IMG/VR virus record: IMGVR_UViG_2663763227_000005
DNA from: a virus
Lineage: Duplodnaviria; Heunggongvirae; Uroviricota; Caudoviricetes
Strand: one strand, 5' to 3'
DNA length: 8,835 nucleotides
This document shows, one piece after another, positions 61 to 8,835 of the stretch. The notes beneath the pieces are model-generated. The model was not told the DNA's origin and made no database searches. It worked only from the letters and a program-made list of their open reading frames with translations. The position numbers were made by a program, and so were the translations under genes. How positions within the stretch are numbered: the stretch's first letter is position 1; each line of letters begins with the position of its first letter.

Positions 61-675
61 TTGTTGACCACTTCAAACTTCCACGGAGTTGAGTTGGTGC
101 CCACCCGTGATATGCATGGTGTTTGGTTTACATCATCTAATATTGCATCTGCACTTAAATACGCAAATAGTCGTGCAGTAACAATGATTTATAACAAGTA
201 TAGCGATGAGTTTAGCGCCGGAATGACTCAGGTACTCGAAGTGAGTACCTCAGGAAATTATCGCAAAAAAGTGCGAGTTTTCTCACTACGCGGTGCCCAC
301 CTAATCGCGATGTTTGCTCGCACTCCGGTAGCCAAAGAGTTCCGCCGCTGGGTGCTGGATATTTTGGATCGGCAGGCAGAATGCTCACCGATTGCAAAAC
401 AGTTTACTGACGAAGAACTGGTTAATCTCTGCTACTTACAATTGTGGATGGAGAAGAGTCAACAAATGTGCAAACACATCTACCCAGGAATGAAGCAAAT
501 TGGTTCTGAGCTTTCAGGAAGGATTTACGATATTGCATATGAGACTCGCTACATGTCAGAAGAAACCAAGAAATCACTTCTTCGTGAAATGAAGAATCTT
601 GATACCAACAATTTTGTCGTAAAGAACGCTCAGCCAATGCTGGCAAAACTTCGCGGCGAGGAATGGATTCATTGA
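61..675 (+). CDS. Bro-N domain phage protein (antirepressor-like, DNA-binding). Start uncertain: TTG at 61 or 64, with an in-frame ATG only at 112.
   Basis: N-terminal pattern FHGVELVPTRDMHGVWFTSSNIASALKY ... VFSLRGAHLIAMFARTPVAKEFRRWVLDIL fits the Bro-N signature (F.F.G..IR...GEPWFVAKDVA..LGY ... LINESGLYSLI..S..P.AK.FK.WV) as I remember it. An in-frame stop at 43-45 bounds the ORF. A GGTGG SD-like sequence lies 7 nt upstream of TTG 61. Confidence 0.65.
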   Translation: MLTTSNFHGVELVPTRDMHGVWFTSSNIASALKYANSRAVTMIYNKYSDEFSAGMTQVLEVSTSGNYRKKVRVFSLRGAHLIAMFARTPVAKEFRRWVLDILDRQAECSPIAKQFTDEELVNLCYLQLWMEKSQQMCKHIYPGMKQIGSELSGRIYDIAYETRYMSEETKKSLLREMKNLDTNNFVVKNAQPMLAKLRGEEWIH

Positions 676-763
676 TTGGTGCGCCGGACTGCGCAAAAAG
701 AAAACCGCCAGTGTGCTGCTGGCGGCCTATGTCACACCCTTACTACCACATAAGGAATGCCTA

Positions 764-1492
764 ATGACTTTTAAGAATGTAGCAAACATCGGATCCGTTG
801 TCACGGATAAAACCATTGATAGCCAGTACCTGTTAGAGATGGTCAATCATGCTCGTAGACAGTGCGGGGAAAAAGAAGTCCGAAATAACGACTTTATTGC
901 ACGCATTAAGGATGAACTTGAAGGTGAGCACTACGAAATTTTCGTAGTTCAAAAATCAAACAAGACAACTTCTGAAAAAGTTGTTATGTCAATTAAGCAA
1001 GCCCTTCGAGTGGCTGCTCGTGAATCTAAAGCTGTTCGCCGCTCACTTGTAGACCAACTTGAAAGTATGCAAGAAGCGCACATTAAAAGCGGTAAATCGT
1101 CGAGTGGACTTGTTGAGTATCGCCAGGCGCGAACATTGAAAATGACGGTTGAAGCTGTTACCAATCTGTTCGATTTGATGCCAAATCTTGCGCCGGAAGC
1201 AAAGCAGACTGCGGCAGCAAGCATAATCAACCCGATAGTTGGTTTTAATGCAATACCTCTTCCGGCAATAGAAGAGCATTACTACTCAGCAGGGGAGGTT
1301 GCAGAGCAGCTTGGAGTAACGGCCAACAAGATTGGTCGCATTGCTAACGCAAACAACCTCAAAACTGAGCAGTACGGGAAGTTCTTCCTGGATAAATCTG
1401 CGCATTCCAGCAAACAGGTGGAAGCATTCCGCTACAATGCGGAAGGTGTTAAAGCTCTACAACACCTGATTCATGGGAGTAATGTTGCATAA
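764..1492 (+). CDS. Phage protein of unknown function, possibly regulatory. The C-terminal segment YYSAGEVAEQLGVTANKIGRIANANNLKTEQYGKFF looks like an HTH-type DNA-binding motif seen in antirepressor C-terminal domains. An alternative GTG start at 713 is less likely.
   Basis: Long ORF with AAGGA SD (752-756) 7 nt upstream of ATG 764. The GTG at 713 falls inside the loop of a hairpin (705-725). Domain assignment is by remembered pattern only. Confidence 0.6.
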   Translation: MTFKNVANIGSVVTDKTIDSQYLLEMVNHARRQCGEKEVRNNDFIARIKDELEGEHYEIFVVQKSNKTTSEKVVMSIKQALRVAARESKAVRRSLVDQLESMQEAHIKSGKSSSGLVEYRQARTLKMTVEAVTNLFDLMPNLAPEAKQTAAASIINPIVGFNAIPLPAIEEHYYSAGEVAEQLGVTANKIGRIANANNLKTEQYGKFFLDKSAHSSKQVEAFRYNAEGVKALQHLIHGSNVA

Positions 1493-2821: not shown

Positions 2822-3021
2822 GTAAAGAATGTTGTTTCTGCGGCATTAGCGAATCAGACGCTGATCAAACATACATTTACTCTAAAGAAACAGGTCGGAT
2901 GCTGTGTAGTGACTGCGTGTTGGACATCATAAGATACAAGCATCTTGGATGTTCTGCCAGCATTAGCAATATAGGTGAAGTATATGAAGGGAAAGATATA
3001 ACTGATAGATCAGAAAGTTGA
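2818..3021 (+). CDS. Small CxxC...CxxC zinc-ribbon protein (67 aa) inserted between arc and ant; function unknown.
   Basis: Cys5-x2-Cys8 and Cys30-x2-Cys33 spacing. The ATG overlaps the arc stop (ATGA at 2818-2821). No equivalent gene lies between arc and ant in P22 as I recall it. Confidence 0.5.
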   Translation: MSKECCFCGISESDADQTYIYSKETGRMLCSDCVLDIIRYKHLGCSASISNIGEVYEGKDITDRSES

Positions 3022-3083
3022 AGCCCCAACTGCGGGAACAGTCAGGGCTTCGGTATCAACAAATCGTCTTAGGAAATATTGAC
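3013..3083 (-). ncRNA. sar: Candidate sar-like antisense RNA (about 70 nt), complementary to the ant ribosome-binding site and start codon.
   Basis: Leftward promoter: -35 TTGATA (plus-strand 3113-3118), 17-bp spacer, extended -10 TGcTATACT (plus-strand 3090-3098). Predicted TSS is near 3083. A compound hairpin AAGCCC-ca-ACTG-cgggaa-CAGT-ca-GGGCTT (3021-3050) is followed on the minus strand by CAACUUUCUG. The predicted length matches the roughly 68-69 nt P22 sar RNA (from memory). Confidence 0.4.
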
Positions 3084-4013
3084 ATGAAAAGTATAGCAAC
3101 AGCAGTATCTACTATCAATGTGCCATTCCACGGCGCAGAGCTTTATGTTGTCAATCACAACGGCGAACCGTACACCCCAATGAAACCTATCGTTGAGGGA
3201 ATGGGCATGACTTGGCAGTCTCAACACCGCAAGTTGATGGAGAGATTTAAGACCTGCATCATCGAAATGATGATTCAGCTCCCCGGCGATACTCAGCGTC
3301 GTCTGGTTATCTGTCTTGCTTTACGCAAACTTGCAGGTTGGCTGCAAACCATCAGCCCTAACAAAGTCCGCCCTGAAATCCGCGACAAGGTAATCCAGTA
3401 TCAGGAAGAGTGTGACGATGTACTCTACGAGTACTGGACTAAAGGCCATGTAGTTAACCCACGCAAAGCTAAAAAAGCGTTGCCGGGTAAAATCACCACT
3501 GAACAGCAGGAAGCCATTAAACAACTCGTCATGAGTCGCGGTCAGTCTCTGCCAAAAGAAAAACAGGCGAAGGCAATGATTACCATGTGGTCGTCACTGA
3601 AATCCCATTTTGGATGTTCGTACAAAGAAATCAGTGAGGAGCAGTTTACAGAAGCACTGTCACTTGCAGCTCGAGTTCCACTTGAAGGTGAGTTCATTGG
3701 CAAACAAGAGAAGAAAACCAACGAGCTTTCTGCAAAAGAAGCAAACAGCCTTGTATGGTTATGGGATTATGCCAACCGCTCACAGGCATTATTCCGCGAA
3801 CTGTATCCGGCGCTAAAACAAATTCAATCGAACTATTCCGGCAGATGTCATGACTGCGGTTATGAGTTCTCCCGTATTATCGATATGGCGAGAGATGTTT
3901 TAATCAACCATACACGAGATATTGATATTAATGAGCCAGACGGACCAACGAATCTTTCCGCATGGATGAGACTTAAGAATAAAGAATTACCTCCTTCAGT
4001 ACATAACTACTGA
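3084..4013 (+). CDS. ant: Ant antirepressor (P22 Ant-type N-terminal domain), 310 aa from ATG 3084. The track ORF starts at TTG 3018, which would run through the hairpin.
   Basis: VPFHGAELYVVNHNGEPYTPMKPIVEGMGMTWQSQHRKLMERF resembles the P22 antirepressor N-terminal domain pattern. AGGAAA (3071-3076) lies 7 nt upstream of ATG 3084. The position after arc and before the tailspike is as in P22. Confidence 0.85.
   Translation: MKSIATAVSTINVPFHGAELYVVNHNGEPYTPMKPIVEGMGMTWQSQHRKLMERFKTCIIEMMIQLPGDTQRRLVICLALRKLAGWLQTISPNKVRPEIRDKVIQYQEECDDVLYEYWTKGHVVNPRKAKKALPGKITTEQQEAIKQLVMSRGQSLPKEKQAKAMITMWSSLKSHFGCSYKEISEEQFTEALSLAARVPLEGEFIGKQEKKTNELSAKEANSLVWLWDYANRSQALFRELYPALKQIQSNYSGRCHDCGYEFSRIIDMARDVLINHTRDIDINEPDGPTNLSAWMRLKNKELPPSVHNY
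3090..3118 (-). promoter_or_regulatory. Psar-like leftward sigma70 promoter inside the 5' end of ant.
   Basis: Minus-strand TTGATA - 17 bp - TGcTATACT, a near-consensus extended -10 promoter, read directly from the sequence. Confidence 0.45.
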
Positions 4014-4113: not shown

Positions 4114-6801
4114 ATGACAGATATTACAGCCAATGTGATCGTATCGATGCCTTCGCAACTCTTCACTATGGCTCGTTCTTTTAAAGCCGTAGCCAATGGC
4201 AAAATTTATATCGGTAAAATTGACACTGACCCGGTAAATCCTGAAAACCAGATTCAGGTTTATGTGGAGAACGAAGACGGCTCTCACGTTCCTGTTTCGC
4301 AACCAATAATCATTAACGCTGCTGGATATCCGGTATATAACGGGCAGATTGCCAAATTCGTTACCGTGCAAGGTCATTCTATGGCTGTTTATGATGCATA
4401 TGGTGCGCAGCAGTTCTATTTTCCTAATGTGCTGAAGTATGACCCTGATCAGTCATTGAAATATGTAGAAGGGGCATTGCTTGTTACTGACTTAGGTAAT
4501 GGGACGTTTAAGAATAGTAGAAAAGACGTTGCCATTGGGGATAATCTAACAGGAACCAATTTTATTAGAATAAACGGCGGCGTCTATAAATGCACTCCAG
4601 TTGCAACTGGAATTGTTACTGAGATCAAACATAGATACATTATCGCAGGCGGGGTTAAAAGCTACCTGTCTCATATTTCCAGGCATGTCAGTGGTACGCG
4701 TAGGCCGCTGAACTGGAAATTAGAATTCAGCATCATAGACGATGAGATTACCGCAGATCTTAAAGATCAGTATGGTTACACGACCATGGGATTTCAGGGG
4801 ATTTACATAGACAGCAATGATGGAATGGTATACATCGGCTGGCAGACGCTAGACCCCGCATCGGTATGGGTTACGGTGCATGACTGGGTAACAGGAGCAT
4901 TGGTAACACGTCTTCATTTTCCGAATAACGTTGGTGCACCAGAAGGCATCCACGTTTACCGAGTGGCAGGACAGCGTTACATCCTGCTGCCGTACAGCCC
5001 ATCTCGCACTATCAGAATTTACCCTATCGAAGATCCGCGTACGCTGGTTGATAAAACGCAGATTACAAACTTCACTGAATCAACACGCCTTGGAGTGCGA
5101 TATCAGTTTAGTGGCTTTGGTAATACCCTGATATACGAAAATGCGGATATGGGTTGGCCGAAAATTTTTGATGTTGAGACAGGTGTATCCAATATCTTTA
5201 ACACACTGGATATTAACAGCCTTATAGAAGGATCTTACAGTCCAATGGGGACTATTACGGTTGATGCAAATGTTGGAGGTCGCGGAGCCGGTAAACCAAA
5301 ACGGCAGGGTGTCGCTCTTGGTTCTCAACGGATATTTGCTGGTATTGGTGCATCTACCACGGCGGGATCTGGAAATACTTTCGCAGGGTTGCAGGGTTAT
5401 ATTGAGTACAGCCTTAATGGTTCAGAATTAGGTCAGTACCTGCTGTCACCTGCAGATTTCAAAACATACTGGGATAGTTATTCAGGGAAGAGTGTTTACT
5501 CCACTGAAAATGAGGGGGTGCAGTCTTGTGATATTTCTGGCTCTGAGGAATTGTATCTTCTACAGTCTATTCGCTATGACAATGGGGGCGGATCAAATTA
5601 TAGGACTTTAAACATCATTCGCGCTAACTGTCCATCTAATGAACCTGGAACAGTAGACATGACTCCGCTATCCAATGCCTCCTCACAGTTATTTAACCCT
5701 CGCGGAAGGGTGATTAACGCTGGCCGTCACCCTGTGAACCCGGCTGATGGTATTGCGCTATTTACATCGGCACAGGCTATTTGTGACTATTTGCGGAATA
5801 CAGATGCAGGTAGATATGTGACATATCTTGAACAGGATATGCCACTGTTTGAAGGTGGGCCATCTGCGCCAGGACAGATGACGCTGCCAGCATTCTGCCT
5901 ATTGCAGATCGACTTCATCAACGGCGATACCTGGGAAATTACAGTTAATGGAACTAACAGGGCTAATAATTATACAGGAAGGATTTCCAAAAACGGCGGG
6001 TACAACTCTTTTACTAAGGTGTCCTCCCGCAGCATGTCGATTCTCGGATCCCCTGGTCTGGTTGATGTATCAATTCGCTCACCTAACTCACTAAATCTTC
6101 CAGAATTTGCTGGAGACTGGTCTACTGGTGTAAGTATAGGAGCTGCAGGTGGGGTGACAAACTGGCAGCCAGAAGGAACAGGTAACGGAGCATTATGGGA
6201 GTCAGGATATGCAAAAAACCGTGTGTTGCAGATATTCATGTCCACAACATCAAAACTGTTCTTCCGCTACGCAGACGATGCTATTCGCGCAGGTAACACA
6301 GGCTGGGCTGAGGCATGGTCGTCGCTGAACACGACCGTCGATTCAAGTGGTTTCATCAAAAAAGCCTCTCCGGTTGTGAAGATTTTCTCAGACGGTAGTA
6401 GTGAAACAAATCGCGAATCAGATGGGGTAACCGTCACACGGCTGGCATTGGGTGAATATCTGATTGAGGGTTGCGTAGGTCTGAATGCAGATGCTTCATG
6501 GGGGGGGATTGATGGTGGATTTGAAATACCGCAGGACCGAAACAAGCAGCCGCTCATCTGGCTGGATTATGTTGTTAACCAAGATGGATCTGTGTTGGTG
6601 AAAACGTTTCACCGCACTCATGATAACTCGCCCGTTTTTGCACGTAACGACATCCCTGGTGTTTCGAACGGTGACCCGATCGACATTCCTGCTAATCAAT
6701 TCGTTTCTGTGCGAGTACAGATGCCTGAGGATTCTGCATGGAATAAGCTTAAGGAACAACTAAATAAGGCTGAATTGATAGAAGATGATGTTGTGGAATA
6801 G
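4114..6801 (+). CDS. Tailspike protein (895 aa). The N-terminal roughly 113 aa is a P22 gp9-type head-binding domain; the remaining roughly 780 aa is a divergent receptor-binding or depolymerase module of unknown specificity.
   Basis: [71 protein letters not shown]...[13 protein letters not shown]...NVLKYDPDQ is near-identical in pattern to the P22 gp9 N-terminus ([59 protein letters not shown]...VLKYDPDQ). Similarity is lost after YDPDQ. GGAG (4102-4105) lies 8 nt upstream of the ATG. Confidence 0.9.
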
Positions 6802-7487
6802 GTCTGTGATATTGGCATAGGTATAAGTGTCCGCTATATGGGTGGCATTACGCCACCTTGCCATCTAGCTAGTCCGCCCACCACTGCATCATTTCTCTGC
6901 GCTTAACGTAGCGGATGCCTCACTATCACACGGTGATGGTTCATTACTGCTTTGTAGAATGGATAGAGAACTGAGGATTAAAAGATATCCCAAAACCCCA
7001 AAATCTCATCTTTAGGATTTGCAGAAAGGGAGGCGTGAACAGATGCCTGCGCATGAAGACGGAACTAGTCCAGATGTGATATTTGTGGTGATCACATACA
7101 TCATCAACGATGCTCGTTATGGTGAGTTTGATGACTACCCGCTGAAGTGAAAATTGTTTTGTGTACCAAATTGCGTACCAAACTAAAATCACAAATCATG
7201 AAGCCCTTGTTCATGGCGGTTCTCAGGGGTGTTGCGCGTAATCGTGAAACAAAAAGGTAGATTGTTGCTTACCGTCATTCATCATTAGGTTAAATCCGTT
7301 GTTTCTGCTGTCTGCCAGAGTATCAAATATCACCGTGCTAATCAGCTTTAGCGCGACAATTTGGCAGCGAGTGGCAACAGATCATGTCAGATAAAAATGA
7401 GAGGGTAGTCACATTTTCTTGCACTTTATTCCAGCCAGTTCATAAGTATTTCCGTAAAAAGAACAGCTATTTGAAACTCCTGAGGGT

Positions 7488-8660
7488 TTGCTGTTGAAAC
7501 GCCGTCTTATTATTGCTGCTTCTTTGTTCGTTTTTAATTTATCGTCTGGTTTTGCGGCGGAAAACATTCCTTTTTCACCTCAACCTCCAGAGATTCATGC
7601 CGGGTCCTGGGTATTGATGGATTACACCACCGGTCAGATTCTCACCGCGGGTAATGAGCATCAACAGCGCAATCCCGCCAGCCTGACAAAGCTGATGACG
7701 GGCTATGTCGTGGATCGCGCTATCGATAGTCATCGCATTACGCCAGACGATATTGTCACCGTGGGGCGTGATGCGTGGGCGAAAGATAATCCGGTGTTTG
7801 TCGGTTCTTCACTGATGTTTTTGAAAGAGGGCGATCGCGTATCGGTACGTGATTTAAGCCGTGGTTTAATTGTGGATTCCGGAAATGACGCTTGTGTTGC
7901 ACTGGCTGACTATATTGCCGGTGGGCAACGGCAGTTTGTTGAAATGATGAACAACTATGCCGAGAAGCTGCATCTCAAGGATACGCATTTTGAAACAGTG
8001 CATGGTCTGGATGCACCTGGCCAGCATAGCTCGGCTTATGATTTAGCTGTGCTTTCTCGCGCTATCATCCACGGCGAGCCCGAGTTTTATCATATGTACA
8101 GTGAGAAAAGCCTCACCTGGAACGGTATCACCCAGCAAAACCGTAACGGGTTATTGTGGGATAAAACCATGAATGTTGACGGCCTGAAAACGGGTCATAC
8201 TTCTGGTGCCGGGTTTAATCTCATTGCTTCGGCTGTAGATGGGCAGCGTCGTCTCATTGCAGTGGTAATGGGGGCTGACAGCGCAAAAGGTCGTGAGGAA
8301 GAGGCAAGAAAATTACTGCGTTGGGGTCAACAAAACTTTACTACGGTGCAAATTTTGCACCGTGGGAAAAAGGTTGGTACGGAACGCATCTGGTATGGCG
8401 ATAAAGAAAATATCGCCCTGGGAACGGAACAAGAGTTCTGGATGGTGCTACCGAAAGCCGAAATTCCACATATCAAAGCCAAATATACCCTTGATGGTAA
8501 AGAACTCACCGCGCCAATTAGCGCCCATCAGCGGGTAGGGGAAATTGAACTTTACGACCGTGATAAACAGGTGGCGCACTGGCCGCTGGTTACCCTGGAA
8601 TCTGTCGGGGAAGGCAGCATGTTTTCCCGGCTGAGTGATTATTTCCACCATAAGGACTGA
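7488..8660 (+). CDS. dacD: D-alanyl-D-alanine carboxypeptidase DacD (PBP6b), a host gene. It has a non-ATG start: TTG at 7488, or TTG at 7494 with better SD spacing.
   Basis: The protein matches E. coli DacD essentially along its full length as I remember it (signal peptide LIIAASLFVFNLSSGFA, SxxK motif in PASLTKLMT, SGN, KTG). GAGGG (7482-7486) lies upstream. Confidence 0.9.
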   Translation: MLLKRRLIIAASLFVFNLSSGFAAENIPFSPQPPEIHAGSWVLMDYTTGQILTAGNEHQQRNPASLTKLMTGYVVDRAIDSHRITPDDIVTVGRDAWAKDNPVFVGSSLMFLKEGDRVSVRDLSRGLIVDSGNDACVALADYIAGGQRQFVEMMNNYAEKLHLKDTHFETVHGLDAPGQHSSAYDLAVLSRAIIHGEPEFYHMYSEKSLTWNGITQQNRNGLLWDKTMNVDGLKTGHTSGAGFNLIASAVDGQRRLIAVVMGADSAKGREEEARKLLRWGQQNFTTVQILHRGKKVGTERIWYGDKENIALGTEQEFWMVLPKAEIPHIKAKYTLDGKELTAPISAHQRVGEIELYDRDKQVAHWPLVTLESVGEGSMFSRLSDYFHHKD

Positions 8661-8835
8661 CCTTTCTTTTGCAGCAGACTGGCAGGAGTGCGAGTCTGCT
8701 CGCATAATCAACACTCATTCCTTGTGGTTTTAATATTGCAACTATACTGTATATAAAAGGGTCTTCCCCGATCATGGTGGGAAGACTCAGTACGCCATAT
8801 TCAGTTTCCCATAGTGGAACATAACTCCCAGTTTA

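Follow-up and report, generated by a model that had tools for sequence, protein, structure and literature searches.

The right end of a P22-like prophage that adjoins dacD raises the question of where phage DNA gives way to host DNA and by which attachment site the phage entered. P22 sensu stricto has its attB in the thrW tRNA gene and carries gtrABC adjoining att. The stretch analyzed here (8,835 nucleotides, hereafter the window) lacks that layout, in which gtrABC lies between the tailspike gene and att: ARAGORN detected no tRNA anywhere in the 8.8-kb window, and neither gtrABC nor an acyltransferase ORF was found in it with the ORF list and Pfam. A preliminary description of the junction had noted both absences and had placed approximately 690 bp of non-coding sequence between the tailspike stop at 6801 and dacD. 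The interval indeed measures 686 bp, but it is not simply non-coding, as it contains codons 1–16 of sbcB, a umuD/humD relic, and an IntS relic (Table 1).

According to the ORFs and their Pfam matches, the window begins within a P22-like prophage, runs through its right end, and passes into host DNA. The Pfam markers of the P22-like (Lederbergvirus-type) group were a head-binding tailspike, the Arc-like repressors of the immI region, and antirepressors with P22_AR_N and P22_AR_C domains, and both Escherichia coli MS 21-1 and related contigs had P22-type virion genes 5' of the identical tailspike. The immI region contains two antirepressor-type genes, at 61–675 and 3018–4013. In the same region, the ClpP-like gene lies immediately 3' of the co-oriented Arc/Mnt-like repressor gene, a pair that was seen again in several related prophages. 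On the host side, the longest dacD ORF runs from 7488, and the start equivalent to that annotated by PGAP is a TTG at 7494. Downstream of dacD, similarity to the K-12-like sequence ends at 8759, and from there to 8835 the window proceeds exactly as MS 21-1 does; in that strain, dacD and sbmC are separated by an ISL3-family ISEc53 transposase gene and a ClbS/DfsB-like gene. This insertion point falls between CTGTATATAAAA and ACAG, which together form what we take to be a LexA (SOS) box upstream of sbmC.

Table 1. Features of the window and the evidence for each
Feature	Position	Strand	Basis or remark
Bro-N + P22_AR_C antirepressor-type gene	61–675		Pfam
259-aa ORF between the two antirepressor-type genes	713–1492		No Pfam match
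ClpP-like protease subunit gene, 178 aa	1770–2306	minus	Pfam CLP_protease, 2e-11
Arc/Mnt-like repressor gene	2306–2554	minus	Pfam Arc-like repressors
P22-type antirepressor gene, P22_AR_N + P22_AR_C	3018–4013		Pfam
P22-type tailspike gene, 895 aa, last prophage gene	4114–6801	plus	Pfam Head_binding, 6e-67; Phage_tail_C_2, 2e-59
Tailspike–dacD interval, 686 bp	6802–7487		ORF list
Hairpin GGTGGC-ATTAC-GCCACC, terminator-like on either strand	6841–6857		Sequence, fold
IntS-type integrase relic, last 17 codons, internal stop	6854–6904	minus	tblastn, E = 1e-7
umuD/humD-like pseudogene relic	6899–7150	plus	tblastn, E = 5.8e-28, 56% identity
82-aa ORF, hypothetical gp17 in Sf101	6944–7192	minus	Antisense to umuD relic
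Two direct repeats TTGGTACRC (GYGTACCAA on plus), putative arm-type Int sites of the tail-side arm	7161–7169, 7173–7181	minus	Motif count, conservation
att core, 13 bp, CGTAATCGTGAAA, crossover region	7237–7249		Three-way alignment; phage DNA left, host DNA right
Orphaned native sbcB 5' end, 20 codons then stop (MMNDGKQQSTFLFHDYAQHP*)	7223–7285	minus	Translation, empty-site annotation
Native sbcB–dacD divergent spacer, 208 bp, intact	7286–7493		Colinear with 5420/5426 complete E. coli genomes
dacD (PBP6b)	7494–8660	plus	Pfam Peptidase_S11, 9e-105; PBP5_C; PGAP annotation in relatives

When 6802–7487 was searched with megablast against 5426 complete E. coli genomes, only the stretch 7237–7487 was universal (5420 genomes), and it reaches into sbcB at the annotated 5' end of that gene. 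The empty site of a prophage-free K-12-like strain has sbcB and dacD in divergent orientation, separated by 208 bp, in agreement with the short spacer given in the preliminary description. In a three-way alignment, attB, the window junction, and the integrase-side junction of MS 21-1 all shared TTTCACGATTACG, the reverse complement of which is CGTAATCGTGAAA, and their host and phage flanks were reciprocal, as expected from site-specific recombination. There is one copy of the core CGTAATCGTGAAA in the window and two in the prophage locus of MS 21-1, one at each end, and its position corresponds to codons 13–17 of sbcB. The proposed prophage–host junction is therefore present, with the phage arm meeting universal E. 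coli DNA at the 13-bp core, and this boundary means that phage DNA accounts for only 435 of the 686 bp. Native sbcB codons 1–16 occupy 7238–7285 on the minus strand, after which the frame enters phage DNA and terminates. The native N-terminus of exonuclease I (ExoI), MMNDGKQQSTFLFHDY, is encoded by ATGATGAATGACGGTAAGCAACAATCTACCTTTTTGTTTCACGATTAC (7285–7238); the divergent spacer is therefore intact and the insertion lies inside sbcB. Alignment with prophage-free genomes thus located the breakpoint and the core that the preliminary description had sought, although not in the sbcB–dacD spacer, which the element had been thought to occupy or replace. The attB core is centered on a perfect dyad, GTTTC-ACGATTAC-GAAAC, which plausibly constitutes a putative pair of core-type Int sites around the overlap region.

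The core is identical to the attP/attB core published for the Stx2c phage 2851 and Sf101. A 13-bp attP has been reported for phage 2851 and for the P22-like Shigella phage Sf101, and the latter integrates into sbcB at the identical site (PMC4159516), so the location is not the oddity for a P22-like phage that had been implied. In GenBank, these 13 bp are likewise marked as attP or as an insertion duplication in the entries for mEp234, HK544, and phage 1717. This type of junction is already known: it is the type-2851 attR in sbcB, with a published and GenBank-annotated core and a P22-like precedent in Sf101. A novel non-tRNA site that occupies or replaces the sbcB–dacD spacer, with the hairpin, GTGATCAC, and the tandem motif all acting as att elements, would account for the lack of a tRNA and of gtr genes in the window, and the tandem motif does act like an arm-type site. 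However, the 208-bp spacer is intact and the breakpoint lies within sbcB, the site is the published 2851/Sf101 attB, the hairpin moves with the tailspike module at other att sites, and GTGATCAC is an unconserved part of the umuD-relic codons. A new site is refuted by the colinearity of 7237–7487 with prophage-free genomes and the identity of the core with the described attP, and we assign it a negligible probability.

We are instead highly confident that 6802–7487 is the attR of a P22-like prophage inserted into the sbcB attB by an integrase of the 2851/Sf101/mEp234 type. In this event, a tyrosine integrase of that type would recombine attP with attB CGTAATCGTGAAA in sbcB codons 13–17. The dacD side would then retain the tail-side phage arm (6802–7236) together with the promoter region and codons 1–16 of native sbcB (7238–7493). 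At the opposite end, beyond the window at a distance of about 42 kb, the integrase-side arm would be joined to the remainder of sbcB, and its in-frame mimic of the 5' end would rebuild the full-length gene. The rest of the arm, comprising the terminator hairpin, the IntS 3' relic, and the umuD/humD pseudogene, would be evolutionary debris.

The far prophage end was examined in proxy genomes. Among the complete E. coli genomes, the best match to the whole window was MS 21-1 (77% coverage, 97.2% identity), which is a reasonable proxy because it has the prophage right end of the window and the same IS insertion point 3' of dacD. In MS 21-1, about 42.8 kb separate the two copies of the core, P22-type virion genes are present, and the order at the far end is a 392-aa tyrosine integrase gene, 181 bp, and the divergent sbcB. 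The integrase is 98–99% identical to those of mEp234, 2851, 1717, Sf101, HK140, and HK544. We infer that the genome from which the window derives has a far end like that of MS 21-1. The rebuilt sbcB of MS 21-1 is annotated as intact by PGAP (1425 nt vs. 1428 nt for the native gene) and starts with MTDTDKQPTFLFHDYETFG..., its first codons being supplied by the phage arm. The arm mimics the sbcB 5' end in frame, MTDTDKQPTFLFHDY replacing MMNDGKQQSTFLFHDY, so that a full-length ORF is rebuilt that is one codon shorter. Free phages carry this mimic in their contiguous attP as well, with a difference of one amino acid in Sf101. The core, int, and sbcB of O157:H7 Z1766 are arranged as in MS 21-1, and sbcB is again annotated as intact. 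The rebuilt ORF may be expressed and active. In Z1766, the 2851-type int is broken by IS1203, which would lock the prophage in the chromosome; the adjoining sbcB is still annotated as intact.

sbcB is one of the four textbook insertion sites of Stx prophages in O157:H7, and the att/int module identified here is frequent in E. coli as a whole. A 201-bp probe centered on attB was intact in 4841 of the 5426 complete genomes, and a probe for the integrase-side junction was found at full length in 582 (~11%). Since 582 equals 5423 − 4841 exactly, this module accounts for every split site in the collection. Of the 5426 genomes, 492 had the tail-side arm in its long form, which extends from window position 6855. 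Insertion into sbcB by this module is thus ordinary and common. These counts also bear on whether the junction is a scar of deletion or illegitimate recombination that joined a decayed prophage remnant to the upstream region of dacD. Pseudogene relics in the arm, the disruption of the integrase by an IS in some relatives, and the position of the far prophage end outside the window are all compatible with such a scar. On the other hand, the breakpoint coincides exactly with the 13-bp core, colinearity of the phage side with the contiguous attP of free plaque-forming phages extends up to the core, and a matching integrase-side junction was found at 582 of 582 split sites. Moreover, viable phages carry the same relics, which therefore belong to a functional arm region and do not indicate that the prophage has decayed. 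There is hardly any chance that the junction arose as a scar.

The tail-side arm contains sequences expected to be bound by the integrase. The tandem GTACCAAA motif lies at 7163–7170 and 7175–7182, exactly where it was first noted, and corresponds to two GYGTACCAA repeats located 76 and 64 bp from the core. TTGGTACRC occurred twice in the window (0.12 expected) and four times in the 49-kb MS 21-1 locus (0.48 expected), numbers that were reached by no shuffle in either case. The copies in MS 21-1 were distributed two per att arm, with none outside the arms, and in the alignment the repeats were invariant in six of six unrelated prophages with this att module. In the contiguous attP of mEp234, Sf101, and HK140, the tail-side copies are at −76 and −64 and the int-side copies at +175, +186, and +209, the first of the latter being a one-mismatch variant, GTGTACCAG. 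All five share one orientation, and the last ends approximately 10 bp before the int ATG. The conservation of the motif and its threefold recurrence in the integrase-side arm in the same orientation indicate that these are very probably arm-type Int sites, a function already suggested for the tandem motif and consistent with its enrichment and its confinement to the att arms. The 2 + 3 layout, which resembles that of lambda, and the PGAP annotation of an N-terminal int fragment (Z1766) as an "Arm DNA-binding domain-containing protein" lead to the same assignment. Most likely, the two repeats in the window and the three on the integrase side would be bound by the N-terminal domain of Int, as in lambda. 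The position of the latter repeats just 5' of int suggests that int may be autoregulated through them.

The arm was 91–96% identical to DNA annotated as "attP (type 2851)" in the free phages mEp234, HK544, HK140, Sf101, 2851, and 1717; homology to the attP of 2851, mEp234, HK544, and Sf101 covered 84–92% of 6802–7260. We aligned the arms of six unrelated prophages at sbcB, three of which were P22-like with this tailspike; the other three were an O111:H8 P22-like prophage with an acyltransferase gene, an O157:H7 lambdoid prophage with nleG7, and a TipJ-tailed siphovirus. All six had in common the 150 bp that immediately precede the core (starting near 7087), and most had in common the arm from 6855, whereas 6802–6854 occurred only in the prophages with this tailspike. 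The window is identical to an IntS-type arrangement from the tailspike through the hairpin to about 6906, and its homology to the 2851-type module (mEp234, Sf101) begins at about 6855. Within the overlap, the IntS relic, KRREMMQWWAD*LDGKV, aligned to KRREMMQWWADWIDEKV of IntS in tblastn, and its DNA matches fell under annotated intS/int genes. Because this patch of approximately 54 bp is common to the tailspike module and the 2851-type att module, the IntS 3' relic is likely to have served as a homologous-recombination joint for the swapping of att/int modules.

The distribution of the tailspike agrees with such exchange. The exact 895-aa protein was found in P22-like prophages at the bio operon (attλ region), argW/yfdC, the paa operon, and dacD, and the copy at argW/yfdC adjoins a convergent IntS-type integrase gene. 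Counting that of the window, the identical tailspike occurs with at least five att/int modules and provides a clean example of module swapping behind one receptor-binding protein. A tRNA attB and gtrABC are not defining for the P22-like group, given that the identical tailspike occurs with other att modules. The slot between the tailspike and att holds oacB in Sf101, an acyltransferase gene in the O111:H8 prophage, an intact or decayed umuD elsewhere, and nothing in the window, and the window has no gtr or oac gene because this slot is a variable cargo position. The exact tailspike look-up returned related mosaics, none with the gene order of the window. In one metagenome contig, early-region genes come after the identical tailspike. 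We considered a 39.9-kb circular P22-like episome that encodes this tailspike as a source of the attP but rejected it, as it carries a different, lambda-type integrase.

The remaining features of the arm are mostly relics. The hairpin folds better than shuffled sequences (z = −2.9 / −2.4) and is located where the tailspike gene and a convergent IntS gene would both end. Its T-run is degraded in the window (CCACCTTGCC), whereas relatives have CCACCTTTTC; the hairpin is followed by TTGCC in the window and by TTTT in relatives, and a consensus terminator scan of 6700–7600 called no terminator, the hairpin included. It travels with the tailspike module, including in prophages at other att sites; it is therefore present as first described, but it belongs to the tailspike/IntS-relic module and is not an att element. 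The umuD relic corresponds to residues 46–130 of the intact UmuD-like protein of HK140, with an internal stop and no N-terminus. In HCM-26C-1 and YZ_2_2, this stretch is a HumD-family pseudogene according to PGAP, and an intact umuD-like gene abuts attP in phage HK140. The palindrome GTGATCAC, which had been placed at about 7067–7074 and considered a possible attachment or arm-type site, actually lies 21 bp away at 7088–7095, where it forms the codons V-V-I-T of the umuD relic. Relatives carry GTTATAAC or GTGATTAC instead, and we rejected it as a site for its lack of conservation and its place within the relic codons. In the promoter scan of 6700–7600, one minus-strand match was found, inside the start of the dacD coding region, against approximately 1.3 expected by chance.

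The arm (6855–7236) could also encode a function beyond Int sites, in the form of the 82-aa antisense ORF or a small RNA. The frame of this ORF is open (83–101 codons) in mEp234-, 2851-, and Sf101-type arms, and it is annotated as a gene in Sf101. In a lysogen, it is situated downstream of the orphaned native sbcB promoter, which points into it. However, the ORF has no Pfam match and no PGAP annotation in E. coli genomes, amino acid changes are frequent in it, and it is absent from HK140/HK544-type arms with the same att and int. It runs antisense to the former umuD frame and starts with codons formed by the arm-type repeats. No Rfam match was found in 6700–7600, even at a permissive E-value threshold. 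Because its C-terminus varies by frameshift in relatives, the ORF is probably not a gene, and an additional function of the arm appears improbable overall.

Among the known systems, the type-2851 att module resembles that of lambda in having a short attB-identical core and 2 + 3 repeated arm motifs (P1, P2 / P'1–P'3 in lambda), although the core and arm sequences are unrelated. Unlike in lambda, int is transcribed away from attP with three arm repeats just 5' of its start codon, and attB lies within a protein-coding gene, the 5' end of which is replaced by the phage. Phage 21 and e14 integrate inside icd and carry a replacement gene end (Campbell's principle), and the likeness extends to the type-2851 module, in which attP-adjacent DNA mimics the interrupted coding sequence and an intact ORF is regenerated. 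However, phage 21 and e14 replace the 3' end of the gene, whereas the type-2851 module replaces the 5' end of sbcB, including the start codon and presumably the promoter. The Stx2c phages 2851 and 1717 and the O157:H7 sbcB prophages share with the window the attP core, the insertion point adjoining dacD, a tail-side arm that is approximately 93% identical from window position 6855, and, according to the proxy, the type of integrase. They are long-tailed lambdoid Stx phages with nleG and tail-fiber genes beside the arm, whereas the phage of the window is of the short-tailed P22-like type and has no toxin genes in the window. Sf101, a P22-like/Sf6-like serotype-converting phage of Shigella flexneri 7a (PMC4159516), likewise has a tailspike as its last virion gene, the 13-bp core, the site in the sbcB 5' end, and an arm that is 91% identical over 6850–7260; its integrase is 98.5% identical to that of MS 21-1. 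It differs in the receptor-binding part of the tailspike and the immI region, and its slot between the tailspike and attP, which is empty in the window, is occupied by the O-acetyltransferase gene oacB.

The useful outcome of this analysis is a base-level dissection of the junction into core, arm-type repeats, and relics, and possibly the only under-described point is the phage-supplied 5' end of sbcB. The sbcB site is commonly called "disrupted" in papers (e.g., PMC8309913), and a literature search for sbcB restoration or a phage-rebuilt sbcB, which did not cover the original phage 2851 paper, found no description. Because the phage rebuilds the sbcB ORF, this wording may be wrong for such lysogens, which bears on ExoI-dependent phenotypes. 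With the 5' end replaced, the expression of the rebuilt gene depends on phage DNA. In MS 21-1 (L005 43172–43352), int and the rebuilt sbcB are divergent over only 181 bp containing three arm-type repeats, and an extended −10-like sequence, TGTGATATT, lies on the int strand just 5' of these repeats, both there and in the attP of mEp234, Sf101, and HK140. A promoter scan detected no consensus sigma-70-like promoter in the 181-bp spacer 5' of the rebuilt sbcB. This layout suggests that Int may regulate itself and may possibly also control the rebuilt sbcB. It is a tentative and rather doubtful proposal that integration swaps the ExoI promoter, start codon, and first 8–9 residues for phage-borne ones, such that the prophage would set the level or regulation of ExoI in approximately 11% of E. 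coli, including Stx2c O157:H7. Retron-dependent essentiality of sbcB has been reported (bioRxiv 10.1101/2020.05.25.114553), and, if the proposal is true, a prophage-set ExoI could affect recombination or ExoI-sensing defenses.
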